A stretch of 64,000 nucleotides of DNA from Candidatus Geocrenenecus huangii (GCA_023254095.1 JALNLM010000006.1:28146-92145); one strand, 5' to 3'. Positions 1-51,351 are shown, counted from the stretch's first letter. Notes: a model not told the origin generated them from the letters alone. Translations and numbers: made by a program.

Positions 1-163
1 ACTCCACCGTACTTTAATTTGAAGACATTAGTAATGCTTATCTTATTCTCCCAAATCATGTTTATTATTTTTTACAACCACTATATAACTTGCTATATCC
101 TACAAGGTTCAGATACTTCAGATATAGGCTTTTCAAAACATGTCCGTGGTTTCACTATATTGC

Positions 164-1636
164 TTACTGCCCAATATTTACTTCTTCCCCCTCATACATT
201 ATTTCTACTTTAATATCTTCTTTTTCGAGTAGCCTCTTGAATTCTCTCGGGTTCTCAGTATGGATGGGGATGACTATTTTCGGCCCTATTTCTTTGACTA
301 ATTTTAGCAGGTCTTCTCTATTGGCGTGGCCTGAAGCATGTATCCTTCTAGTATCGAGCCTAAGGAGGTTTATCCATCTCTCAACTTTTTCCCACTCTAT
401 TTCTTGTTCTTCATCATGGGGCTCACTTGTCGATTCAATGAATAGTGATCCAGGAATCGGCTGTATCTCCGCTAGCTCAAATAGACATTGATGACTATTG
501 AAGATAAGAAAGAATTCATCTTGATCTTTAGATATTTCCTCGGACTTGATAAGCTTGTCAGTTCCAGACAAAGATTCATAGATCTTCTTTACCCAGCCTC
601 TGTAATGAGGGGATCCGAGAAAGTAGCCTTCATCGATTATGGACCTTTTCTCAAAATATATCTTCGCATTTTCTAGTTTCGGAAGCTTAACTTTGCTTTC
701 TACTTCATGCAGCGTCTTTATTAAATGATAGATCCTAGGTGAGAGAACTGGTATCCTATCGCATTCTTCTGCAGCTTCGATTAATGTTCTGATTCTATCT
801 ATATCTAATGATGAAACCAGCACGGTGATAAGTTTTTCCTTCTTCTTCAAGGTTTCTGATACAACTTCTTTCTTAACATCGTCTTCAGACTTGGTTGTTG
901 AATCATTTATTCTAGTTCCTTCGACTAAGAGAACGTCTATGCCCTTCACATTTTCCACGAAGTCCTGCGTGTATGTACTAACGATACCGTGAAACCTGAT
1001 ATCACTCGTGTAAGCTATTGAGGCTTTACTTGTCTCTATTCTGAAGCCGAAGGTAGCTGGAATTGAGTGGTCAACCGGGATCGGCAAGATTTCAATAGGT
1101 GCTCCACGGATCTTTTTGTCTTCCTCAAAAATTATCAATGGACGTTCTACTTCCTCTACTTCCTCTTTCCCGGTTTTCTTTCTTAACTCTTCCTTCTTCC
1201 TATCCTTGTAGATGAAAATCTCTCTATCGATACCGGATCTCCCAGATGTTTCAATTGCATGTTCAATCAATGCTTTCATACTCTTACTTACTGCTATAGG
1301 TGTCTCCATCTTTAGAAACGTTACTGCACCGTAATGGTCTAAATGCCCATGGGAGACTATACAACAATCTATTGAAAAAGCTCTTTCGCTACTGATAAGC
1401 CCCTCATCCAACATCAAGTCTTCCCTGTATATCCCGTTAATCTTCGGAAGTATACCTACGAGTAAATAATTCTTCAATATCCTGTTCGTCCTCTCGAACC
1501 CGTAACCTATTTCGTATTCTCTCCTCTTCTTAAGACTGAGACCAAAATCTAAGAGTATAGCCCATTCCTTTTCATGTAAGAGTATTTTGTTCCCTCCAAT
1601 CTCTCCAGCTCCACCTAGTAAACAAATACTAACCAA
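164..1636 (-). CDS. Metallo-beta-lactamase/beta-CASP ribonuclease (archaeal RNase J / aCPSF2-like)
   Basis: HxHxDH motif 'VSHGHLDHYG'. N-terminal 'LGGAGEIGGN' typical of beta-CASP RNases. Long intact ORF. Confidence 0.6.
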   Translation of the reverse strand: MVSICLLGGAGEIGGNKILLHEKEWAILLDFGLSLKKRREYEIGYGFERTNRILKNYLLVGILPKINGIYREDLMLDEGLISSERAFSIDCCIVSHGHLDHYGAVTFLKMETPIAVSKSMKALIEHAIETSGRSGIDREIFIYKDRKKEELRKKTGKEEVEEVERPLIIFEEDKKIRGAPIEILPIPVDHSIPATFGFRIETSKASIAYTSDIRFHGIVSTYTQDFVENVKGIDVLLVEGTRINDSTTKSEDDVKKEVVSETLKKKEKLITVLVSSLDIDRIRTLIEAAEECDRIPVLSPRIYHLIKTLHEVESKVKLPKLENAKIYFEKRSIIDEGYFLGSPHYRGWVKKIYESLSGTDKLIKSEEISKDQDEFFLIFNSHQCLFELAEIQPIPGSLFIESTSEPHDEEQEIEWEKVERWINLLRLDTRRIHASGHANREDLLKLVKEIGPKIVIPIHTENPREFKRLLEKEDIKVEIMYEGEEVNIGQ

Positions 1637-1760
1637 TCCTAATAGAGTATTGTTTGAAGCATATTTAAAGATAGAATATAAAATCTTCGAACTACTTGAC
1701 TAGTATGCGAAGCATATTCCTTAAGGATATATCCTAGATAATCTATATACTCTATCAGAG

Positions 1761-2939
1761 TTGTCCATGTCTTCACCTATTCCAAGTGTTGAAGAATACA
1801 TGAGGAGAGAAGCATATTTTATCGATGTAGAAGACACTCTAAGTAGAGTCGTCGGAATATTTAGAGAAACAGGCATCCCCATAGTTATCGTCTTAAGTAA
1901 TTCTCAAAACTATCTCGGAGTCATTACGGATAGGATAGTATTGAGATCTATGTTAAACATTGATGCTGTAAAAGCAAAAAATGTTGTTATGAAGGTTCCA
2001 ACGGTCAATATATCTGACTCTATCGCAAAGGCTGCACGGATAATGCTCGAGAACACGGTTAAAGGCTTACCCGTCTCTGGACATGATGATCGAATAGTAG
2101 GTATAATTACGGTAGACGATATAGGTAGAGCTGCTGAGAAACTTTATCCGTCATTAAAGATTAGAGAAATTATGACTAGAGACCCTATAACGATATCGGC
2201 TGATTCCACAATAGGTAAAGCATTAGTGCTCATGAGAGAGAACGGAATATCTAGGCTGCCGGTAGTCGAGAATAATAGACTGGTAGGACTAGTTACTATT
2301 AGAGATATAATTGATAAAGTACTGCAGCCTAAGACGAGGGCAACACGAGGAGAGGTGGCTGGAGAGAAGATTAGAAGCCTCGGATACAAGGTCTCGGATA
2401 TTATGACCAAGAGTGTGGTTCAGGCCTCTCCTGAAGAAGAACTTTCTACTGTTGTCAAGAAGATGATTAAAAACGATGTTTCATGTCTAGTAATCGTCTC
2501 TCATAATAGAGTGTCGGGAATAATCACTTGGACAGACATACTCGAGATCGTTGCTTCTCTAGAAGAAAGAGGGAAACCGCCAATCCATATCCAGGTAAGC
2601 TTCAAGATTGAAGACATATCTCCCGCTGAGAAATCCGAGATAATTAAAATCTCAGAAAAGTATGTTTCAAAACTTGGGAAGGCTTTGGGCAATGGACATC
2701 TCTTACTACACTTCAAGGAACATAAAGAGAAACATGGTGAAACTCATTTGATACATTGTAGGGCTGTTCTTAGAACAGATAAGGTGAACTTCACAGGTGT
2801 CGGTGAGGCATGGAGTGCCAGCCAAGCGGCCAGGGTAGCTTTAGATAAGATCGAGAGGCAGTTATTAGTAGTTAAGGAATTAGCTGAGAAATATCCATAC
2901 AGTGAGGAAATCTTGAAGAGGTGGATTGCAGAGTTCTAG
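1761..2939 (+). CDS. Four tandem CBS domains fused to a C-terminal HPF/RaiA-like domain (ribosome hibernation factor fold)
   Basis: Repeated CBS-like blocks ('GIPIVIV', 'GLPVSG', 'ISRLPVV', 'VSCLVIV'). C-terminal ~100 aa ('IQVSFKIEDISPAEK...HLIHCRAVLRTDKVNFTGVGEAWSASQAARVALDKIERQLLVVKE') matches the HPF/YfiA beta-alpha-beta-beta-beta-alpha pattern, including the 'DKLERQL' signature. Confidence 0.6.
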   Translation: MSMSSPIPSVEEYMRREAYFIDVEDTLSRVVGIFRETGIPIVIVLSNSQNYLGVITDRIVLRSMLNIDAVKAKNVVMKVPTVNISDSIAKAARIMLENTVKGLPVSGHDDRIVGIITVDDIGRAAEKLYPSLKIREIMTRDPITISADSTIGKALVLMRENGISRLPVVENNRLVGLVTIRDIIDKVLQPKTRATRGEVAGEKIRSLGYKVSDIMTKSVVQASPEEELSTVVKKMIKNDVSCLVIVSHNRVSGIITWTDILEIVASLEERGKPPIHIQVSFKIEDISPAEKSEIIKISEKYVSKLGKALGNGHLLLHFKEHKEKHGETHLIHCRAVLRTDKVNFTGVGEAWSASQAARVALDKIERQLLVVKELAEKYPYSEEILKRWIAEF

Positions 2940-3499
2940 AAATCAGGTTCAACCATTACCCTGTATAGGGTACGGGGAGAAAGAACCAGCCTAGATAAAC
3001 TTGTCTTGATCTTCACGGTAGAGTAGACCAGTATCAAAATAAGTATCACCGCCGATACAATATGCAGGATGAGAGATGCATAGAAGTAACCTAAGGTTAT
3101 CGTTAGAGGACCCTCGAAGTAGATAGGTAGAAGAGGCCACAGCAATGGATTATAGGAGTGGTGTAGATAGTCTATTATTACGTGGCTTAATGCTCCAATA
3201 CTAGCAATTGCCCATAAGTACCCTATATCCTCTCTAAGATTATTTTTTATTCCAAGCACCTTTCTTACCTTCATAGAACTGTAGAGTAACCTTGCGGTTA
3301 AGACGGCAAGTAAGCTATCGATGGTTATAGCCCCTATTATTGAGTGCGCTAATCCTCTAGGGATACTGTATCCTAGCACTGCCAAGATCGGTATCTCGAT
3401 GTCAGGGATCATAGATCCGAGGAACAGCGTGATCCTTCCATTCTTTAGTTTCCTCAAGATCGGCCAAACATAGACTATGTGGAGAATCGTAACTGGCAT
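2936..3499 (-). CDS. Membrane-bound metal-dependent hydrolase-like protein (YdjM/DUF457-like)
   Basis: Multi-TM small protein. N-terminal 'HIVYVWPI...GSMIPDIEIPI' resembles the DUF457 family. Confidence 0.4.
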   Translation of the reverse strand: MPVTILHIVYVWPILRKLKNGRITLFLGSMIPDIEIPILAVLGYSIPRGLAHSIIGAITIDSLLAVLTARLLYSSMKVRKVLGIKNNLREDIGYLWAIASIGALSHVIIDYLHHSYNPLLWPLLPIYFEGPLTITLGYFYASLILHIVSAVILILILVYSTVKIKTSLSRLVLSPRTLYRVMVEPDF

Positions 3500-13776: not shown

Positions 13777-14012
13777 CTAGAGATTAATTCATGCTCTGCT
13801 AGATAAGATTTCCTAATCAATACTCTCGTCAAATTTTTGATAGAGGAAGTGGCCTCTTCAAATTCCGTTGGAAGATAAACTTTCACAATACTAGGGAGAA
13901 AATAAAGCTAAGAAGAACCATTATGAAGTAGATTATTGAGGATAGACCTAATCACATCCACGTTATTAAACTTACATCATTAGTCAAGATTGCTTGAAGA
14001 CATACCAAATGT

Positions 14013-14096
14013 GCGGGGGGTGGGATTCGAACCCACGAACCCCTACGGGACAGGGTCCTAAGCCCTGCGCCTTTGACCAGACTTGGCTACCCCCGC
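14013..14096 (-). tRNA. tRNA-Leu(UAG), long variable arm
   Basis: The reverse complement reads GCGGGGGTAGCCAAGTCTGGTCAAAGGCGCAGGGCTTAGGACCCTGTCCCGTAGGGGTTCGTGGGTTCGAATCCCACCCCCCGCA. Anticodon loop CUUAGGA gives UAG. The variable arm is of the Leu/Ser type. No encoded CCA. Confidence 0.85.
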
Positions 14097-18364: not shown

Positions 18365-19789
18365 TTGTACGATACCTCTACAAAGTCAAGAGTTATTAAT
18401 CTGTGCAACCATGTTGTTATCATGCCTAGATTGGCCATAACGGTTATAATGGTCTTCACACTAGCACTAATCGTTGCAACTCCCGCAAATGGAGAAGCAT
18501 ACACCGCAATACTGCAAGATGAAAATCTTAGGATTTCACTATATTATCCTCCAGAAGTAAAGATAAATTCTTGCTATAATTTTAGATTTGAGGCTCAAGC
18601 CTTTGAGTCACTAACAATAGGTGAGATTAGATTAAAAGTAAAGATGTATAGAAATGGTGTAACGGAAACTCTCCATGATAGTATACTTGTCGATGATACT
18701 GCGGTTGGAAGTGGGTGGACGTTCAGCAAGAACATCGTTGTATGTATTCCTACACCGAGGAGACCTGACCCATTCCTAGAAGCAGAGATATATGCAAGCT
18801 ACACTCTAGACAGTGGAGATACGAAGACATTATCAACAGAATGGTATATGTCTACCGTTAGAACGAAGACATATGATGAATTATTGTCAGAACTTGATGA
18901 AACGAAGAAGAAGATTAAATATCTTGAGGATAGGGTTAGAGACCTCGAAGACGATATAGAAGAGTTGGAGGAAAGATTATCTAATATGTCTAGGAGCTAT
19001 AACGAGCTGTTAACAGATTATAAAGCTTTACAGAAGAGTTTTCAGAGGCTCCAAGATGATTATGGCTCTTTACAGCAAAAGTACATTGGACTTCAAGATG
19101 AGTATAAGAATTTAAGCGAAGAATACAGGAAACTGTTAATCGATTATGAGAAGCTCAGAACGCTCTACGAAAAATTAATAGATGAAAATAAACAACTTCA
19201 ATCAAACTATAATTCTCTTAGAGAAGACTATATCTCATTAACGAAAGAATACTACAGTCTTCAGGGAGTCCACCAAGACCTGACAGAAAGATACAATGAT
19301 CTAACGAGCAGGTATGAGCTGAATATTGAGACTATAGGTCAACTCCAATCAACTATAGATGGTCTGGAGAAAACTATTAGAGAAAAAGATGAAAAAATAA
19401 ATGAACTCAACTTGATCTACTCTTCGACGGCGAGCGAGAATACGTTGACTAAGAGTATACTCTATGCTCAAACTGCGGCTGTAGTTGGAGTGGGAGCAGG
19501 CATATACATTATGAGTTTGAGGAGAAGGAAGTCGGCTCAACCATCGACTGGATTTTCTTCTCAGCCTCCGGTGCCTCCTCCTCCAACCACCCCTCTAAAG
19601 GAGGAGGTGAAAAACTCTGGGAATGGTAGAGTTCAGAAGATTCTCTCCGGCAGAAGGATAACCTTACCTAGAGATGCTCTAGAAAAGTTAAACATTAACG
19701 AGGGTGGAAAAGTAGTTGTGGAAGTATATGATGATTACGTTAAGATAATGCCGGTAAAAGGAGAAATACAAGAAAATAACAATAACTAG
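18365..19789 (+). CDS. Secreted/membrane coiled-coil protein with a C-terminal cytoplasmic AbrB/MazE-like (swapped-hairpin) domain
   Basis: Signal peptide 'MPRLAITVIMVFTLALIVATPANGEA', so the probable true start is about 18422. About 15 consecutive heptads 'xYxxLxx'. TM 'TAAVVGVGAGIYIMSL' followed by 'RRRK'. Pro-rich linker. C-terminal 'RVQKILSGRRITLPRDALEKLNINEGGKVVVEVYDDYVKIMPV'. Confidence 0.6.
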   Translation: MYDTSTKSRVINLCNHVVIMPRLAITVIMVFTLALIVATPANGEAYTAILQDENLRISLYYPPEVKINSCYNFRFEAQAFESLTIGEIRLKVKMYRNGVTETLHDSILVDDTAVGSGWTFSKNIVVCIPTPRRPDPFLEAEIYASYTLDSGDTKTLSTEWYMSTVRTKTYDELLSELDETKKKIKYLEDRVRDLEDDIEELEERLSNMSRSYNELLTDYKALQKSFQRLQDDYGSLQQKYIGLQDEYKNLSEEYRKLLIDYEKLRTLYEKLIDENKQLQSNYNSLREDYISLTKEYYSLQGVHQDLTERYNDLTSRYELNIETIGQLQSTIDGLEKTIREKDEKINELNLIYSSTASENTLTKSILYAQTAAVVGVGAGIYIMSLRRRKSAQPSTGFSSQPPVPPPPTTPLKEEVKNSGNGRVQKILSGRRITLPRDALEKLNINEGGKVVVEVYDDYVKIMPVKGEIQENNNN

Positions 19790-27363: not shown

Positions 27364-28740
27364 GTGGAGGTTAGAAGACTTAGAACAGGTGTCGAAGGGC
27401 TGGACAAACTAATCCAGGGAGGTATACCTGAGGGTTTCTTCATAGCTGTAACAGGTGAACCAGGATGTGGAAAAACGATCTTCGCTATACACTTTATCTA
27501 TCAGGGTGTTCTCGATAATGATAAATCGATATACGTAACAACCGAGGAAAGTAGAGAATCGATAATAAAGCAGGCTTCCCAATTCAATATGGATTTCGAG
27601 AAGGCCATCCAAGAAAATAAACTAGTAGTTATTGATGCCCTAATGGGTAGAGAAGACAAATGGAGCTTGCAGAGCTTAGATCTCGAAGCATTGGTAGGTA
27701 GGATCATTGAAGCCAAGAGAGAACTCGGATATGGTAGAGCGAGAGTAGCGATAGATTCCATAAGCGCATTCTGGCTCGATAAACCTGCAATGGCTAGAAG
27801 ATACTCTTACTACGTTAAGAAAGTCTTATCAAAATGGAATTTTACGACTGTTGCAATAAGCCAATATGCAATAACAACTTCTCTCCCATATGATCAACCA
27901 ATACTAGTAAGGATAAGTGGGGAAGCGAGGACGGTGCAAATAGGTGATTTAGTAAACAAGCTAATATATGGTGCATCTCCATGGAGTATGGAGGTCGCCT
28001 GTCTCGATTGGAAAGACCTTAAGATTAAATGGGCGAAACCATGCTCGGTCATCAAACATTTGTACAGTGGATTAATCTACAAGATTAAACTACAGGATGG
28101 AAGAGAAGTCTCCGTTACGAGAGACCATAGTTTATTTGTTGTTAGGGACGGCAAAATAAAATGTGTTCCAACAAATGAAATTCGGATAGGCGATTACCTA
28201 TTGGTGCCAGCGAAGCATATTGATGAGGATAAGCGAGTCGGCAACCTTATAGGAGAACGCTTGCAACATGTGGGAGAGTACGTCTTTTCTCCTCCACGAT
28301 CTACTGGTCATTTACTCGGAAACAACGGAGAACTAGGCGATGCGAAGACATTAAGAGTTGAAGACATGGATGTTAGAAATGTTCTAGGAGTAGATGTCTA
28401 CGATATTTCTGTACTGGGTCTAGAAAACTTTATTGCAGGTGTAGGCGGAGTAGTCTGCCATAACTCTGAAGCATTTGGATGGGGGATAGAGCATATAGCG
28501 GATGGGATAATAAGATTTAGAAGGAGTATTAGGTCTGGAGAACTGAAAAGATATGTTCTCATAGAAAAGATGAGACAGACGAATCATAATAGATATCTAC
28601 ATGAGATAGACATTGTATCTGGTAAAGGACTAACCATACTAGGGCCAGTTGAGAGAAGAAGAGAAGATCTCAGTCTCCCTAAAGAGGTTTTTAAGAAGAT
28701 GATTGAATCTAGGAAGAAGGCAGAAGGAGAGATTCCCTGA
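27364..28740 (+). CDS. KaiC-like RecA-superfamily ATPase interrupted by a mini-intein
   Basis: Walker A 'GEPGCGKT'. KaiC-like 'VYVTTEES' and 'TTVAISQ' blocks. Extein resumes 'SEAFGWGIEHIADGIIRF'. Confidence 0.8.
   Translation: MEVRRLRTGVEGLDKLIQGGIPEGFFIAVTGEPGCGKTIFAIHFIYQGVLDNDKSIYVTTEESRESIIKQASQFNMDFEKAIQENKLVVIDALMGREDKWSLQSLDLEALVGRIIEAKRELGYGRARVAIDSISAFWLDKPAMARRYSYYVKKVLSKWNFTTVAISQYAITTSLPYDQPILVRISGEARTVQIGDLVNKLIYGASPWSMEVACLDWKDLKIKWAKPCSVIKHLYSGLIYKIKLQDGREVSVTRDHSLFVVRDGKIKCVPTNEIRIGDYLLVPAKHIDEDKRVGNLIGERLQHVGEYVFSPPRSTGHLLGNNGELGDAKTLRVEDMDVRNVLGVDVYDISVLGLENFIAGVGGVVCHNSEAFGWGIEHIADGIIRFRRSIRSGELKRYVLIEKMRQTNHNRYLHEIDIVSGKGLTILGPVERRREDLSLPKEVFKKMIESRKKAEGEIP
27880..28464 (+). 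mobile_element. Mini-intein (195 aa, Ser1...His-Asn / Ser+1) inside the KaiC-like ATPase
   Basis: Block A 'SLPYDQPILVRISGEARTVQIGDLV', block B 'TRDH', blocks F/G 'VYDISVLGLENFIAGVGGVVCHN' followed by S. No LAGLIDADG or HNH endonuclease motifs. Confidence 0.75.
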
Positions 28741-39055: not shown

Positions 39056-40187
39056 ACATGGACATAAGTATAGAGATGAAAAGAATGGAGTATTCATTCC
39101 GCCTATTTACCAGACTGCTATCTTTGAGCAGCCAGGTTGGACTAGGAAGACTGATAGAGGAGTAGACCTCAAATACAGTAGAGAAGAAAATCTAACTGTT
39201 GAATCGTTGGAAAATGTAATCACTGAACTAGAAGAAGGTGGAGACTCTCTTTGCTTTTCAAGTGGTATGGCCGCAATATCTACAATATACTTCTCCACAT
39301 TAAGAAAATACGATCAAATAGTCCTATCCGCTGAATCGTATGGGACGACTTTACAACTTGGAGAGAAACTTAGAGAATTCGGTATAGACGTTCAGGTCTC
39401 ATGGCCTGAAACAGAAAATATCATAGAATCAATAAATAGGAAGACGAAGCTCGTATTGATAGAGGTCGTAACAAACCCGACTTTAAGAGTGTTCAATATC
39501 CGAGAGATAGCTGAAGTATGTAGGGAGAACAAAACAATCCTAGTAGTGGACAATACGTTCGCTACGCCATACCTCTATAAACCCTTAAAAGATGGAGTAG
39601 ATATAGTCCTCCATAGTCTAACAAAATATCTATCAGGACATAACGATGTATTAGGTGGCTCAATAACCTCAAGTAAAGAAAAGATTCTAGAGCTATGGGA
39701 TTGGAGAAGAATGCTCGGAACGATAATTCCACCCTTCGAAGCATTCCTGATAATCAGAGGCTTGAAGACCTTTGAGTTAAGAATGGAGAAACATTGTAAA
39801 AATGCTCTAATAATAGCTGAGCATCTCCAAGAACATCCAAAGATAACCGAAGTACTCTACCCCGGTTTAACCTCCAACAAATACCACGATATAGCTAAGA
39901 AGTTATTCAATAATAAAGGATTCGGAGGAGTCGTAAGTTTTAGGATAAAAGGTGGTGAAGAAGAAGTAGTGAGACTGATGAAGAACTTGAAGATTATTAA
40001 ACCAGCACCCAGTCTAGGAGGAGCTGAATCTATCTTAACTTATCCAGTAATTAGTGCAGCCATGACTATGCCGAAAGATCTTCGAGATAAGCTAGGCATA
40101 AAAGAAGACCTCCTGCGTTTATCGGTTGGACTCGAAGATGTAGAAGATTTAATCGAAGACATCGATAAGGCTTTAGCCAGTATCTAA
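39056..40187 (+). pseudogene. Cys/Met-metabolism PLP enzyme (cystathionine gamma-synthase/beta-lyase family) disrupted by a +1 frameshift near codon 45
   Basis: The N-terminal 'MGHKYRDEKNGVFIPPIYQTAIFEQ...DLKYS' is in one frame (stop at about 39200). The rest ('REENLTVESLENVITELEEGG...SLTKYLSGHNDVLGG') is in the +1 frame. One extra A in 'cagtAagagaag' at about 39176-39186 accounts for the shift. Confidence 0.7.
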
Positions 40188-46254: not shown

Positions 46255-47721
46255 CTAGTCGAATACTAATGCGTTTCCTACCAGTTCATGAACCCCTCCA
46301 ACCGTAATGGGCATCTTATAGTGGTCAAAGTATTCAGTGAAAGCGGCTTTATCTATTGCACATATGCAGGCTAAGAAGTTTGCCCCAGTCCTCTTTATGG
46401 CCTCGATCTTCGGTTTAACGGCTTTAAGTCTTAACTCAATAGTCTCATCCGCGAGCAACCCCCCTCCAGCACAACAACATATTGTCTTCTCCCTGTTTAC
46501 GTTCGGGTCAAGTTCAACATAGTTTCTACAAACGTTCCTGAGTATGTATCTAGGTTCTTCTATCAACCCTAGGACTCTGGCTGGATTGCAGGAGTCATGA
46601 TACGTAACAATGTATTGATTGTTTGCGTCGGGGTTCAACTTTAGTTTTCCATGCTTTATCAAGTCTGCGGTGAACTCGCAGATATGGACCATCTTAGTAG
46701 ATGCAGCGTGTTCAAACTTGGTGCCTGTTACAGGTGAGATAGGCTCTTCTAAGAAATCTAGTGGTCCATTCATTGTATCCATGAACGCATGTATAACCCT
46801 CCACATATGTCCGCATTCTCCTCCAAGAATCCATTTAACACCAAGCCTCTTCGCCTCCTCTACAAGCTTCTTATTAATCTTCTTCATATGCTCGTATCCA
46901 AGCCAAGTCCCGAAATTGCCTCCTTCACTAGCATACGTGCTTATCGTATAGTCTAGCCCGATCTGGTGAAACATCTTTATTGCTCCCTTAAGTGTACCCC
47001 AATGTGGTCCTCCGAAAAAGTCGGCGGAAGGGGGAACATACAGTATCTCTGCACCCTTCTTGTTTATCGGTACTTTAACATCTATCCCAGTTTCTTCCTT
47101 GATCTCTTCTTCAGCGAATTGTATAGCGCTGAGGAGTGCTGCTGGAGGTATGCCCATATGGTTCCCTACTGTCTCACATTTCGCTATTGCCTCTGTTAGT
47201 GATCTTGGACTAAGCCCTATAGCTGTCAGAACCTCTCTAGCAGCGATCATTATCTCCGCAGTATCTATCCCGTACGGGCAGAAGACGGAACACCTTCTAC
47301 ATTGAGAACATTGATAGAAATAGGTATACCATAACTCGACTGTTTCTTCTGTAAGTTCTTCTGCCCCGACAAGTCCTCTGAATATCTTTCCCGTTAATGT
47401 AAAGTATCTCTTGTAGACAGACCTGAACAAGTCTTGTCTAGCTACAGGCATGTTATTTGGATCTAGAGTACCGAGAAAGAATGGACATTTATCTGTGCAT
47501 GCTCCGCATTTCACACAGATATCCAAGAACAGCTTTACAGACCTGAATTTATTTACTACTTCATTCATCTTCTTTAAAGCTATCTCTCTCCAGTCTGGTG
47601 GAAGATTGAATTGTGTATGACTCCACTCTCTTGGGAACGGTAGATTCAGGGTCTCCATATCACGTTTCCACGTAGCATAAAGTTTATACTTCCTCGCAGG
47701 TTGAGTAAGGTCTACTTTCAT
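46255..47721 (-). CDS. HdrD/DsrK-like iron-sulfur oxidoreductase (2x[4Fe-4S] ferredoxin + CCG domains)
   Basis: 'CVKCGACTDKCP' and 'CSQCRRCSVFCP' ferredoxin motifs. C-terminal Cys-rich 'CNPAR...CCCAGGG' CCG-type domain. Confidence 0.75.
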   Translation of the reverse strand: MKVDLTQPARKYKLYATWKRDMETLNLPFPREWSHTQFNLPPDWREIALKKMNEVVNKFRSVKLFLDICVKCGACTDKCPFFLGTLDPNNMPVARQDLFRSVYKRYFTLTGKIFRGLVGAEELTEETVELWYTYFYQCSQCRRCSVFCPYGIDTAEIMIAAREVLTAIGLSPRSLTEAIAKCETVGNHMGIPPAALLSAIQFAEEEIKEETGIDVKVPINKKGAEILYVPPSADFFGGPHWGTLKGAIKMFHQIGLDYTISTYASEGGNFGTWLGYEHMKKINKKLVEEAKRLGVKWILGGECGHMWRVIHAFMDTMNGPLDFLEEPISPVTGTKFEHAASTKMVHICEFTADLIKHGKLKLNPDANNQYIVTYHDSCNPARVLGLIEEPRYILRNVCRNYVELDPNVNREKTICCCAGGGLLADETIELRLKAVKPKIEAIKRTGANFLACICAIDKAAFTEYFDHYKMPITVGGVHELVGNALVFD

Positions 47722-48527
47722 CTTCTCTCGCCTCCCGGGCCGATAGTTTCAAGTTCCTCTTTAAACTTCTTGTAGTATTCCTCCCACGTGATTACCTCGA
47801 CGGGATAATTCCATGGATTTACATGTCTCCTCCATCTAGTTATATTTCTCATATTCCTAGTAGTAGATAGTATCCAGCCAATTAGATGTGATACTTTGCT
47901 AAATGGTATGTAGATGAATAGTATCTGTGCTAAGACGTAGTGTGTTATGAACCATATGTTCTCGGGGGGAGGAATAGGGTTAAATGTGAGGAGGCTATAC
48001 ATGTAGCTGCCTACAGATGCAACATCTACTAATCCGAAGCTTCTCATATACACTCCTAGAAACACTATTGTAATCAAGAGTATTAAGATTACGTAATCGC
48101 TCGTCTTCGAGATGTAACTCACGTTTGGGAGTACTAGTCTCCTGACTAAGAGAAAAGCTAATGTAGCTAGAAAGAATATGCCTGAGTATAGTACAGCCTC
48201 ATACCATCCATATCCAATTACTGACCAGAGGTCGTGGAAGTATACATTAATTATATGTGAGATCAATGTTATAGCTAAAGCTACGTGGAAGACATATCCA
48301 CCCAGCCATAGCTTTTTATTTCCTTTGAGCAAGCTTCGAAAAGTGAGTAAATCTAGTGACATTCTCTTTAATACGCCGGAATAGGTTATGGGGGCTGGAG
48401 CAACAGGCAACCTGAATGGAACAGGTACGGAGAGCCATCTAAGCACTCTGTATATTAGGCCTATTATTAAAGTGAAGAACGCTATGTACGGAGTTATATA
48501 TCCTATGATGAAGATTAGTGGGTCCAT
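47718..48527 (-). CDS. NarI-like membrane cytochrome b (DsrM/HdrE-like)
   Basis: Five TM helices with conserved His in TM2 and TM5 ('HVALAI', 'HYVLAQ'). The start overlaps the dsrK-like stop. Confidence 0.65.
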   Translation of the reverse strand: MDPLIFIIGYITPYIAFFTLIIGLIYRVLRWLSVPVPFRLPVAPAPITYSGVLKRMSLDLLTFRSLLKGNKKLWLGGYVFHVALAITLISHIINVYFHDLWSVIGYGWYEAVLYSGIFFLATLAFLLVRRLVLPNVSYISKTSDYVILILLITIVFLGVYMRSFGLVDVASVGSYMYSLLTFNPIPPPENIWFITHYVLAQILFIYIPFSKVSHLIGWILSTTRNMRNITRWRRHVNPWNYPVEVITWEEYYKKFKEELETIGPGGERR

Positions 48528-48791
48528 CTAGGTGGCACCTCCTTTAAGATACGTTAGTAACATTATCAGGATTATCATTCCTATGCCTGCAGCTATCCAT
48601 TCCTGGTCATAATCTTCGCTTCTATAATAGATATAAACTATCATGCTTAAGATGATTAAGCTTGAAGCAATATATCCTGCCGCCTGAATCTGCTGGGTCA
48701 CTATTATCGGGTTCACCACCCACGTTAGTACAGTTAATACGCCTTGAACGAGAAGTAGAACAACTAATATCACATCAACACTCTTAGCCAA
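48528..48791 (-). CDS. Small 2-3 TM protein, hypothetical subunit
   Basis: 87 aa, hydrophobic. Tightly packed between cytochrome b and the DsrM-like gene. Confidence 0.4.
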   Translation of the reverse strand: MAKSVDVILVVLLLVQGVLTVLTWVVNPIIVTQQIQAAGYIASSLIILSMIVYIYYRSEDYDQEWIAAGIGMIILIMLLTYLKGGAT

Positions 48792-50274
48792 TCCTAAACC
48801 ACCTCTCTAAAGCTTTAAACCTCTTCTCAAGGTTTCCAATCCTTAAATCTTCGAGATATATCGTCTTGAAGGCTTCTATGGTAGATAGTGCTAAGAGGAC
48901 TGACCCCAGCATAAGCCATACAGAGCCTATACTTTCGGTCAACGCTCCATAGATAATCCTAAATGATAAGCCTGCGCACATTATAGATAACAGGAACTTC
49001 ACAGCCGTCCATATATAATGTTTGGGATTTGGCCTCGTCTCCACCAAGTCTCTTATCTTCAGTTTACTAAACTTCTCCCATACTAGTTCAGGAGGCTTAA
49101 TGATCCTCAATCTATAGAGGTATGCAGCTAAGAATATTATTATTGTCGGGATTATTATGGAGAGTATTGCTACATCCGTAGGTATGTATGAGCCTGCGGT
49201 GGCCCAGGCTAGGTAGGTCATTAAGCCTACTTGGACTATTATCCAAGCCCCTATAGCTAGGAAGAATGGTCTCTCGGAGGGATGCCTGTCTTTCCATCTA
49301 TCTATGAATGGTAGGAATATGAAGATCAAGGTAATGATCATGAGTGTCGATACGAAGATATTGAAACCTGCTTCTCCCATCACCTCTATAAACTCCGTCT
49401 TAGCTATCGCGTAGGTCCACATGAAATACCACTCGGGCATAGGTATTGTGACGACTCCAGGAGTATATTTTTCATGTAGACCAAATGGATAAACTATTGA
49501 GGCGAACAGTATGGATGCAACGTAAACAGAAGCTATTATTACAAAGTATAAGAATACATTCGGAAACCATGGGACGAGCTTTTTTTCTTCTTCAGAGATG
49601 TATCTAGATACGGGTTCCGTTATTCCATGGACCTCGAATATGTGCAGCTTTATGGCTAGTAGTATTAGGAGCGTTGCAGGCAGTAGAACAGTATGGAATG
49701 TGAAGAATTTTCTCAGTAACTCTGCGTCCGTCCCATATCCTGAAATGACGTATTCTAGAAGACCGCTTAGAGGCTGAGGGAGATGTTTTATTATTGTTAT
49801 CCCGAATCCCACAGCTGCATATGAAAGAGCATACCATGGGAGAAGATAACCTGTGAAACCCATCATCAACGTGATTAAGCCCATGAGCATACCTACAATC
49901 CACATCAATTCTCTAGGTCTCCTGTAAGCAACCACAAAATAATTCCTCATAAAATGCAGGAACGAAACAAATATCATGGAGAAAGCTGAATATATGTGGA
50001 TGTTTCTTACGAGGTTTCCGAATGGGACCTCAACAATTATCCTGCTCACGGACTCCCATGCAGTATCGGGGTGGGGATCATAGTATTGGAGTAGGATTAT
50101 TCCAGCTATTCCCGCGGTGAAGAAAGCCAATACAGCAATCGCTCCAAGCCAGTATGAAGGATTTCTTAAAGAGTATTCAGGAGCGGGTCTCAAAATTGTT
50201 TTAGTAAAACCAAAATTTTCATCAAGCCAGCCAGCGAATCTATCGATAAGACTTTTTCTAGTCATGCCGGTCAC
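48784..50274 (-). CDS. Cytochrome b of a Rieske/cyt b (bc-type) complex, with C-terminal extra TM extension
   Basis: Qo-site 'PEWY' motif ('MPEWYFMW'). Conserved His pairs in helices B and D ('HIYSAF', 'FHTVLL'). About 12 TM, 496 aa. Confidence 0.75.
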   Translation of the reverse strand: MTGMTRKSLIDRFAGWLDENFGFTKTILRPAPEYSLRNPSYWLGAIAVLAFFTAGIAGIILLQYYDPHPDTAWESVSRIIVEVPFGNLVRNIHIYSAFSMIFVSFLHFMRNYFVVAYRRPRELMWIVGMLMGLITLMMGFTGYLLPWYALSYAAVGFGITIIKHLPQPLSGLLEYVISGYGTDAELLRKFFTFHTVLLPATLLILLAIKLHIFEVHGITEPVSRYISEEEKKLVPWFPNVFLYFVIIASVYVASILFASIVYPFGLHEKYTPGVVTIPMPEWYFMWTYAIAKTEFIEVMGEAGFNIFVSTLMIITLIFIFLPFIDRWKDRHPSERPFFLAIGAWIIVQVGLMTYLAWATAGSYIPTDVAILSIIIPTIIIFLAAYLYRLRIIKPPELVWEKFSKLKIRDLVETRPNPKHYIWTAVKFLLSIMCAGLSFRIIYGALTESIGSVWLMLGSVLLALSTIEAFKTIYLEDLRIGNLEKRFKALERWFRIG

Positions 50275-50275
50275 C

Positions 50276-50980
50276 TCATAATTTCTCTTCTAGAGTTACT
50301 TCTGAGACTAGTTTCTTGCCTAGCATTATCCTCTTCAACTCGTCGGGATTCGAAGAGCACTGAGTTACTCCGGGAACAGCTGGTGCTGGAGGGGCTAGCC
50401 CTAAAACGTAAATGTCCCCAGAAGCCTCATCATATTCTAAAACTACTCTACATAGACTACAGAATGGTGGTCCTGCGAGAACCTCACCATCTTTCTCAAG
50501 ATCATAGATTGCTGCGTGAGCTGGGCAATATAATAAATTCTTATCTGGATAAAGTTCTAGAATATTTGGTGGAACAGTCTTCAGATAAGTTAATTTTTCT
50601 GGTATTCTTTCTTCTTTCGGTGGAATATAAATAGTCCCGTAATATCTAGCGTGCTGGCATATCATGACGTATGCGACTATATCTTTGTCAGGGCCTATCC
50701 CTGACGGAATATTTTTCCCAGTCTTGACAACTAGACATGGAATATCCCTCGTAGGATAAGAGAACAAGTACCACGTTTTAGGTTTAATATCTTTAATATT
50801 CGCTAACCTGACTCGAGGCCATTCAGGGATTTCTAGAATAGCTGGAGTAATAGATTTTAAGAGTGGAGCCGCACTACCGAGACCTAGAATAAAGGAGAGG
50901 GCCGTGATAAATTTAAGAGTAGTCCTTCTACCTGTCGATATTTCATCCTTGCCATGCTCCTCATGAGCCAACTTGATCAC
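50276..50980 (-). CDS. Rieske [2Fe-2S] protein with twin-arginine signal
   Basis: Tat motif 'GRRTTLKF'. Rieske boxes 'CQHARY' and 'CPAHAAIYD'. Both boxes lack the disulfide cysteines. Confidence 0.65.
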   Translation of the reverse strand: MIKLAHEEHGKDEISTGRRTTLKFITALSFILGLGSAAPLLKSITPAILEIPEWPRVRLANIKDIKPKTWYLFSYPTRDIPCLVVKTGKNIPSGIGPDKDIVAYVMICQHARYYGTIYIPPKEERIPEKLTYLKTVPPNILELYPDKNLLYCPAHAAIYDLEKDGEVLAGPPFCSLCRVVLEYDEASGDIYVLGLAPPAPAVPGVTQCSSNPDELKRIMLGKKLVSEVTLEEKL

Positions 50981-51018
50981 CTAAACATACATTAGGAAAA
51001 ATGTATTCGGTAGCTATT

Positions 51019-51351
51019 CTAGACGCAGCCTGTAGGCTTTGGCAACCCTGCTACTTTACAAGCACCCTTCGCAGGTCCTGAAGGGAAGAGTTCATAGATT
51101 TTCTGGAGGGAGAATCCTGTCTGTTTTACAAGCATCCTTATTGGTGGAGCTACACCATATTTCTGCCAGTATTCCCTTAAGTAGTTTATTACCTTCCAAT
51201 GTTCATCAGTCAGTTTCTCCACGCCTTCGAAATGTTTTGCGAAGAATTCTGCAACCTCCGGGCTCCATTTCTCAGGTTCTTGGAGGAAACCGTCTTCATC
51301 TACTTCAAGCTTCTGTCCTTTAAACTCTACATGAGGCATGATCTTTTCCAC
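51019..51351 (-). CDS. dsrC: DsrC-family protein (both conserved C-terminal cysteines)
   Basis: C-terminus 'GACKVAGLPKPTGCV' is the diagnostic DsrC tail, with CysB and penultimate CysA. Confidence 0.8.
   Translation of the reverse strand: MEKIMPHVEFKGQKLEVDEDGFLQEPEKWSPEVAEFFAKHFEGVEKLTDEHWKVINYLREYWQKYGVAPPIRMLVKQTGFSLQKIYELFPSGPAKGACKVAGLPKPTGCV

Follow-up and report, generated by a model that had tools for sequence, protein, structure and literature searches.

The stretch analysed here (the window) comprises 64,000 nucleotides of DNA from Candidatus Geocrenenecus huangii (GCA_023254095.1 JALNLM010000006.1:28146-92145), and close to its beginning lies a gene whose product joins four CBS domains to a C-terminal domain resembling the ribosome hibernation factors HPF and RaiA, an architecture that makes it a very probable member of the archaeal HibA/AHA family. 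The open frame runs uninterrupted over 1761..2939 (+) and encodes 392 amino acids counting from the TTG codon at 1761, from which all residue numbers below are counted, with positions given in window coordinates and strand. The sequence around the start reads ttg tcc ATG tct, with the ATG at 1767. The nearest database proteins are 390 amino acids long with the N-terminus MSS, and the same 390-residue product was called on several NCBI contigs of metagenome-assembled genomes (MAGs); since homologs and NCBI calls on identical MAG contigs share this length and beginning, the true start is most likely ATG 1767 and the product 390 amino acids. The first-pass annotation, made from the DNA alone, was right that the frame is real and probably wrong in starting it at 1761. 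On the basis of the homologs, the NCBI calls and the match to the Protein Data Bank (PDB) chain 9sr9_H, the hibA/AHA-type gene is placed at 1767..2939 (+), stop codon included.

Near-full-length homologs numbered 77, were spread over many contigs and all kept the fusion of CBS and HPF-like parts. Identity reached 99-100% with MAG entries named "CBS domain-containing protein [Nitrososphaerota archaeon]", and the next relatives were labelled Aigarchaeota/Caldarchaeales. The names attached to the family vary: homolog P0063 is called "Inosine-5'-monophosphate dehydrogenase [archaeon HR01]", the PDB name of 9sr9_H is "Dehydrogenase", and "ribosome-associated translation inhibitor RaiA" was used for only two JGI entries, P0078 and P0101.

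The N-terminal part is a CBS module of four motifs forming two Bateman pairs (1785..2558 (+), residues about 9-266), as delimited by Pfam, the secondary structure of an AlphaFold2 model and Foldseek. The four CBS domains announced by the first-pass annotation were recovered as four stretches of PF00571 in the Pfam scan (E=3.3e-50, 168.6 bits), and four beta-alpha CBS units are visible in the model. The top Foldseek matches of the full-length model were SriA on the 70S ribosome (best, E=1.3e-22), MJ1225, Dri and AMPK-gamma. When the module alone was searched with phmmer, HibA scored 150 bits, 9l96_a 98, MJ1225 84 and Sri 55-66, the tetrads other than HibA covering the range 55-98, a ranking by phmmer score that is consistent with a place of the module in the HibA clade and not among Sri/CM-1..6, Dri or HhpR. 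By homology, the module would dock on the large ribosomal subunit and bind adenylates.

The CBS module also accounts for the enzyme names in the databases. A reading of the protein as an IMP-dehydrogenase-related enzyme or another dehydrogenase could appeal to the names of P0063 and 9sr9_H and to a partial match to TIGR01302. This match, at 82.9 bits, fell far short of the cut-off of 481.5; it aligned residues 67-192 with positions 76-205 of the 450-position model, which is the CBS insert, and the catalytic barrel is absent from both the Pfam scan and the AlphaFold2 model. As TIGR01302 aligns to the CBS insert alone, the names "IMP dehydrogenase" and "dehydrogenase" are annotation artefacts, and an enzymatic role of this kind is barely conceivable.

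Within the module, predicted adenylate-site motifs of the form G-h-h-T-x-x-D were located by conservation in CBS3 (G176/T179/D182) and CBS4 (G253/T256/D259), spanning 2286..2537 (+) from G176 to D259. Across the 33 homologs in which the CBS and loop motifs were counted, G176, G253 and D259 were present in all 33, T179 and D182 in 32 each and T256 in 31, and the CBS1 motif is degenerate, with Ile at the Asp position. The motifs in CBS3 and CBS4 agree with the nucleotide site published for HibA and AHA, where AMP or ATP lies between CBS3 and CBS4, and with the Thr/Asp logic of the ARC proteins and AMPK-gamma. AMP, ADP or ATP is a probable ligand of the cleft between the two motifs.

The HPF/RaiA-like domain occupies 2574..2891 (+), residues 272-377, as defined by AlphaFold2 models, Foldseek, a domain profile and PF02482 (Ribosomal_S30AE) in relatives. 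Its predicted secondary structure consists of beta 275-282, alpha 288-309, beta 312-322, beta 329-339, beta 343-350 and alpha 353-377, after which comes one more short helix. The mean predicted local distance difference test (pLDDT) was 81.9 for the whole protein and 83.4 for the domain alone, the latter with a predicted template-modelling (TM) score of 0.73. The HPF signal of the one sequence by itself is weak: PF02482 was the top Pfam match of the last 113-121 residues (15.9-16.4 bits, E=0.015-0.022), and an NCBIfam scan of the same residues returned no match. Seven of 17 family members matched PF02482 at E<=1, with a best E of 5.3e-06, and every other Pfam family was matched by at most one member.

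A profile built from the domain (alignment A2) and run against all PDB sequences gave 13 matches, among them the archaeal CBS fusions 9sr9_H (3.8e-12) and 9l96_a (6.5e-07); ten of the 11 remaining matches were RaiA, YfiA, protein Y or HPF chains with E values of 0.018-0.5, and the alignments to RaiA/HPF chains span beta4 and the last helix (..LDKIERQL.. vs ..INKLERQL..). The domain was modelled alone because the Foldseek list of the full-length protein was dominated by CBS tetrads. Against the PDB, ranks 1-33 of the domain model were all HPF, RaiA/YfiA, plastid pY/PSRP1, MPY or RafH; the best was 6eri_BV (E=1e-06, target-normalised TM 0.77), and 4hei_A reached a TM of 0.79. Over ranks 1-29 (E<=0.001) the target-normalised TM was 0.32-0.79, and unrelated folds, double-stranded RNA-binding domains among them, began at rank 34. 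This comparison of an AlphaFold model with HPF structures had been set as a test beforehand, and the contrary outcomes, a C-terminus that fails to match HPF profiles or that folds differently, were not seen.

The C-terminal domain is thus a remote homolog of bacterial S30AE, below the level of Pfam membership, and the HPF/YfiA character proposed for it is borne out by PF02482 in relatives, the domain profile and the Foldseek ranks. The string that the first-pass annotation had quoted, AARVALDKIERQLLVVKE, is present at residues 356-373, within the last long helix; the domain does lie at the C-terminus, where its length is about 120 residues (272-392) instead of the about 100 proposed. By homology, it would plug the 30S subunit's mRNA/tRNA channel.

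The two modules together match a single solved protein from end to end. A phmmer search of PDB sequences aligned query residues 10-386 collinearly with residues 6-386 of 9sr9_H, a chain of 392 amino acids, at an E value of 3.6e-57, 34% of the 375 alignment columns being identical; a second solved homolog is chain 9l96_a of 406 amino acids (E=2e-36; entries 9l96, 9l98, 9l9c and 9l9v). Entry 9sr9 is HibA of Pyrococcus abyssi (Pa-HibA), whose structure on the 70S ribosome was determined by cryo-electron microscopy (Nat Commun 2026, PMC13324472; preprint 10.1101/2025.10.11.676729). The identifiers given there are Q9UYR4 with PDB entries 9sr9-9srf and 9t7h for P. abyssi and F0LKU5 for T. barophilus, and the protein, found on 70S ribosomes of stressed P. 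abyssi, consists of four CBS motifs (1-269) and an HPF/RaiA-like domain (270-392) (PMC13324472).

The published work supplies the functional frame. HibA's C-terminal domain occupies the 30S subunit's mRNA/tRNA channel, and the CBS module was seen on the 50S subunit in three positions, at the peptidyl-transferase centre (PTC), at uL5 and at the L1 stalk (PMC13324472). At the PTC, A2834, which is conserved universally, is wrapped by the long loop 190-207, the insertion 324-330 contacts uS12 and decoding bases, and inhibition of translation in extracts requires the C-terminal domain (PMC13324472). A T. barophilus knockout had its stationary-phase 70S ribosomes reduced by about 60% and showed a longer lag with later regrowth (PMC13324472). 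AHA of Haloferax volcanii was discovered independently, with the same architecture and a stationary-phase phenotype, and HHpred and Foldseek tied its C-terminal domain to HPF and its tetrad to AMPK-gamma (2026 preprint, PMC12934967). According to genome surveys, HibA is encoded by about 47% of the archaeal genomes (PMC13324472), and AHA occurs in 2,723 of 6,968 GTDB species (PMC12934967). The HibA survey table takes in Caldarchaeales and Nitrososphaeria; among the rows of that table that are listed, the assemblies with this exact protein do not occur (PMC13324472).

The structural roles published for HibA and AHA were mapped onto the window protein through its alignment to Pa-HibA. The loop after CBS3 (PKTRATRGEVAGEKIRSLG; 2328..2384 (+), residues 190-208) is the equivalent of the "PTC loop" of HibA and "loop 3" of AHA: it aligns to Pa-HibA 190-207 with 0 gaps and 8 of 18 positions identical, GE.AGEKI being common to both (window 191-KTRATRGEVAGEKIRSLG-208 vs Pa-HibA RFKAQYGELAGEKIPPFS), and P190, G197, G201, E202, K203 and L207 are near-invariant across the 33 homologs. 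Two insertions of the HPF-like domain that are specific to archaea, EDI at 284-286 and KHGETHL at 324-330, align without gaps to Pa-HibA 283-285 and 324-330, respectively. The second is held by the beta2-loop-beta3 hairpin LHFKEHKEKHGETHLIHCRAVL (2706..2771 (+), residues 316-337), which was delimited by the same alignment and pairs without gaps with LYIRRFNEKFRGVHLYQARMR of Pa-HibA. The C-terminal tail with its short extra helix (2892..2936 (+), residues 378-392) was assigned from AlphaFold2 and motif conservation, and its YPY..E motif is conserved in the clade.

CBS tetrads have many functions, and a different identity may be considered, in which the protein is a non-ribosomal CBS-tetrad regulator, either a transcription factor like HhpR or a subunit like AMPK-gamma, with the HPF-like domain repurposed as an RNA or protein binder. 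A partial NCBIfam match to HhpR (E=1e-16) and the presence of AMPK-gamma in the Foldseek list (E~1e-17) would fit this, as would the double-stranded RNA-binding domains among the weaker Foldseek matches of the C-terminal domain (ranks 34-47). The HhpR match, however, amounts to 61 bits against a cut-off of 520, identity to AMPK-gamma is 16-18%, and the CBS module matches that of HibA best, ahead of other tetrads. Because the hallmarks of HibA/AHA (HPF fusion, PTC loop, archaeal insertions) are all present, and because HhpR and AMPK-gamma score far lower, a non-ribosomal regulator is very unlikely.

Several points weigh against assignment to HibA/AHA with a hibernation role. Identity to the characterised HibA is just 34%, and the likeness to HibA was measured on sequence, as the Foldseek copy of the PDB ends at 2026-04-08 and HibA entries are absent from it. 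The single-sequence PF02482 score stays under the gathering threshold of 23.7 bits. Two parts of the AlphaFold2 model have low confidence, namely the PTC loop (pLDDT 54-65) and the tail helix 381-391 (pLDDT 57-63). For the window protein itself, we infer ribosome contact, translation inhibition and adenylate binding by analogy with its characterised relatives.

On the other side, architecture, fold, full-length homology and the conserved loop, insertions and nucleotide motifs are all shown by the sequence or its model, and the HibA/AHA hallmarks of CBS tetrad, HPF-like domain, full-length collinearity, CBS3 loop and both insertions are found in the window protein. The gene is therefore regarded, with high confidence, as a HibA (Hib/AHA) ortholog of an uncultured Nitrososphaerota archaeon related to Aigarchaeota/Caldarchaeales, in which it would act as a hibernation factor. 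The proposal that a CBS tetrad fused to an HPF-type domain forms a ribosome hibernation factor has accordingly found its counterpart in a full-length homolog from P. abyssi. The accompanying remark on how little archaeal HPF-type factors have been characterised is outdated, as HibA, AHA and the Sri/ARC/Dri proteins were published in 2024-2026; the family is already known from publications of 2025-2026, and nothing but an ordinary ortholog is seen in the window protein.

One feature sets the clade apart. In the hairpin, H321, H325, H332 and C333 (LHFKEHKEKHGExHLIHCRA) were invariant in 28 of 28 Nitrososphaerota/Aigarchaeota homologs of 41-85% identity, the set across which the hairpin was counted. 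Pa-HibA carries F, F, Q and A at these positions, and the signature is absent also from distant homologs. It is the sole feature of the protein not covered in the available text of the HibA and AHA publications. A His3-Cys element of this kind might be sensitive to metal, redox state or pH and so provide a second input besides adenylates for ribosome engagement or release in the HibA of this clade, which would be a long shot; the signature may equally reflect lineage-specific contacts with rRNA or protein and nothing more.

[quoted passage not shown] With one module on each subunit, a single polypeptide would bridge the two, bar both mRNA and tRNA and clamp the idle 70S ribosome, which would stay protected until growth returns.

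Whether adenylates govern this process is a separate matter. The CBS module of Pa-HibA binds AMP, ADP and ATP with dissociation constants of 12 μM, 65 μM and 113 μM, respectively (PMC13324472), and AHA on native ribosomes of Hfx. volcanii carried two AMP molecules between CBS3 and CBS4 (PMC12934967). Native HibA complexes carried no nucleotide, and, as a point against a switch, addition of AMP or ATP at 5 mM made no material difference to the binding of HibA to 70S ribosomes or to the three conformations of the reconstituted P. abyssi 70S:HibA complex (PMC13324472). These last two results would suit a HibA-like ribosome binder whose binding is not gated by adenylates and which is controlled instead by abundance, by competition with tRNA and mRNA or by sequestration by partners, and the HibA authors themselves propose sequestration by DNA replication and recombination partners as an alternative. 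Set against this are the AMP pair on native AHA, the release of ARC-A and ARC-P by ATP, and the invariant or near-invariant Thr/Asp motifs of CBS3 and CBS4 in the clade, which argue for a selected ligand site. ATP-triggered release was shown just for these stand-alone CBS factors. Control without a gate is a serious contender, held at somewhat under an even chance, and it rivals the switch step alone, leaving the family assignment intact.

As ribosome binding by HibA did not respond clearly to AMP or ATP, the step termed an energy switch is unproven, and the direct energy-charge-to-translation switch envisaged by the first-pass annotation is not established for HibA/AHA. A genuine adenylate gate on ribosome silencing is plausible for the family, its chances being put at roughly even.

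In its surroundings, hibA is monocistronic and without conserved neighbours. Upstream and divergent lies a gene for an MBL/RMMBL ribonuclease-like protein of beta-CASP type (164-1636 (-), 490 amino acids), separated from hibA by an AT-rich intergenic region of 130 bp read at 1637..1766, which presumably holds the promoters of both genes; TATA-like runs are seen in it. Downstream and convergent is a YdjM/DUF4184-like membrane protein (2936-3499 (-)), whose stop codon overlaps that of hibA by 4 bp (2936-2939), a layout found also at the related loci L001 and L007-L009. Beyond it follow glutamine synthetase and then GatD/GatE. A relative with 61% identity (L001) retains the order MBL/RMMBL RNase - hibA - YdjM - GlnA - GatD/E, whereas relatives at 49% and 41% no longer have it, which identifies this order as local synteny and not a functional cluster; a functional pairing of hibA with the neighbouring ribonuclease was dropped for the loss of gene order in distant relatives. 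A phmmer search of the 64-kb window found no other open reading frame with a CBS module or HPF-like domain.

The window carries archaeal markers, namely CDP-archaeol synthase, GatD/GatE, aIF5B, eS6, Kae1 and diphthamide synthase. Further genes were observed in passing. A KaiC/RadA-like ATPase (27364-28740 (+)) is split by an intein, KaiC appearing in two stretches and Intein_splicing at residues 191-367. The region 46255-51351 (-) encodes a Fer4/CCG protein (DsrK/HdrD-like), a NarI-like (DsrM-like) membrane protein, cytochrome b and a DsrC-like protein (131 bits), which suggests a cluster for sulfur or respiratory electron transfer, and these Dsr-like genes are followed by glutamyl-tRNA reductase and a gene set of sirohaem/cobyrinate type. 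ARAGORN and Rfam both reported a single RNA gene for the 64 kb, a tRNA-Leu (anticodon TAG, 14011-14096 (-)) unrelated to hibA. The frame 18365-19789 (+) encodes 474 amino acids with only weak coiled-coil-type Pfam matches below cut-offs and is probably a long coiled-coil protein. For a pyridoxal-phosphate enzyme of Cys/Met metabolism (39207-40187 (+)), the Pfam model aligned from its position 57 on; a start upstream of the listed TTG may have been missed, or the gene may be truncated at its N-terminal end.

A deduction from raw sequence thus matched a design now seen as the most widespread ribosome hibernation factor of archaea, and the same deduction would have been a major finding if made before late 2025. 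Its practical value now lies in re-annotation, since entries named "CBS domain-containing protein" or "IMP dehydrogenase" can be renamed as HibA/AHA.

Among known systems, AMPK gamma is the most general parallel. It has in common with the window protein a four-CBS disc with adenylate sites at CBS3/CBS4 (Foldseek E~1e-17 to 1e-18), and it differs in its low identity, in having no HPF domain and in acting within a kinase heterotrimer, so that the relation is one of superfamily. The tetrad fold, together with ribosome silencing and adenylate binding, also links the family to SriA-D and ARC-A and ARC-P (Methanosarcina, Methanolobus) and to Dri (Pyrobaculum); these proteins have one or two CBS tetrads without an HPF/RaiA domain, whereas the window protein has one tetrad together with that domain. 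The phyletic distribution of Sri and CM-1/2/4/5 is reported to be largely complementary to that of HibA/AHA.

From the other side of the fusion, the bacterial and plastid HPF/RaiA proteins (YfiA, pY, PSRP1; PF02482) share the fold of the C-terminal domain and, by homology, would share its 30S binding site. The window domain differs from them by an identity of only 11-23%, its two insertions, a longer C-terminal helix with tail and the fusion to a CBS tetrad. Neither Pfam nor AlphaFold2 revealed the long-HPF dimerisation domain that brings about 100S formation in bacteria, about 15 residues following the HPF-like domain, and, in contrast to HPF, the CBS-fused HibA type keeps 70S monomers and forms no 100S dimers.

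The closest systems are HibA and AHA. With HibA of Thermococcales the window protein has in common the four CBS motifs and the HPF-like domain, the CBS3 loop, both insertions and the CBS3/CBS4 motifs; it comes from a different phylum-level lineage (a Nitrososphaerota MAG), about two thirds of its residues differ, and the His/Cys positions of the hairpin are a feature of its own clade and not of Pa-HibA. AHA of Hfx. volcanii, compared by its published description, has its HPF domain lodged within the 30S channel, its tetrad lying over the A site and the P site, and loop 3 of CBS3 in the PTC (PMC12934967), the same two-module design with the same mechanism as is proposed here.

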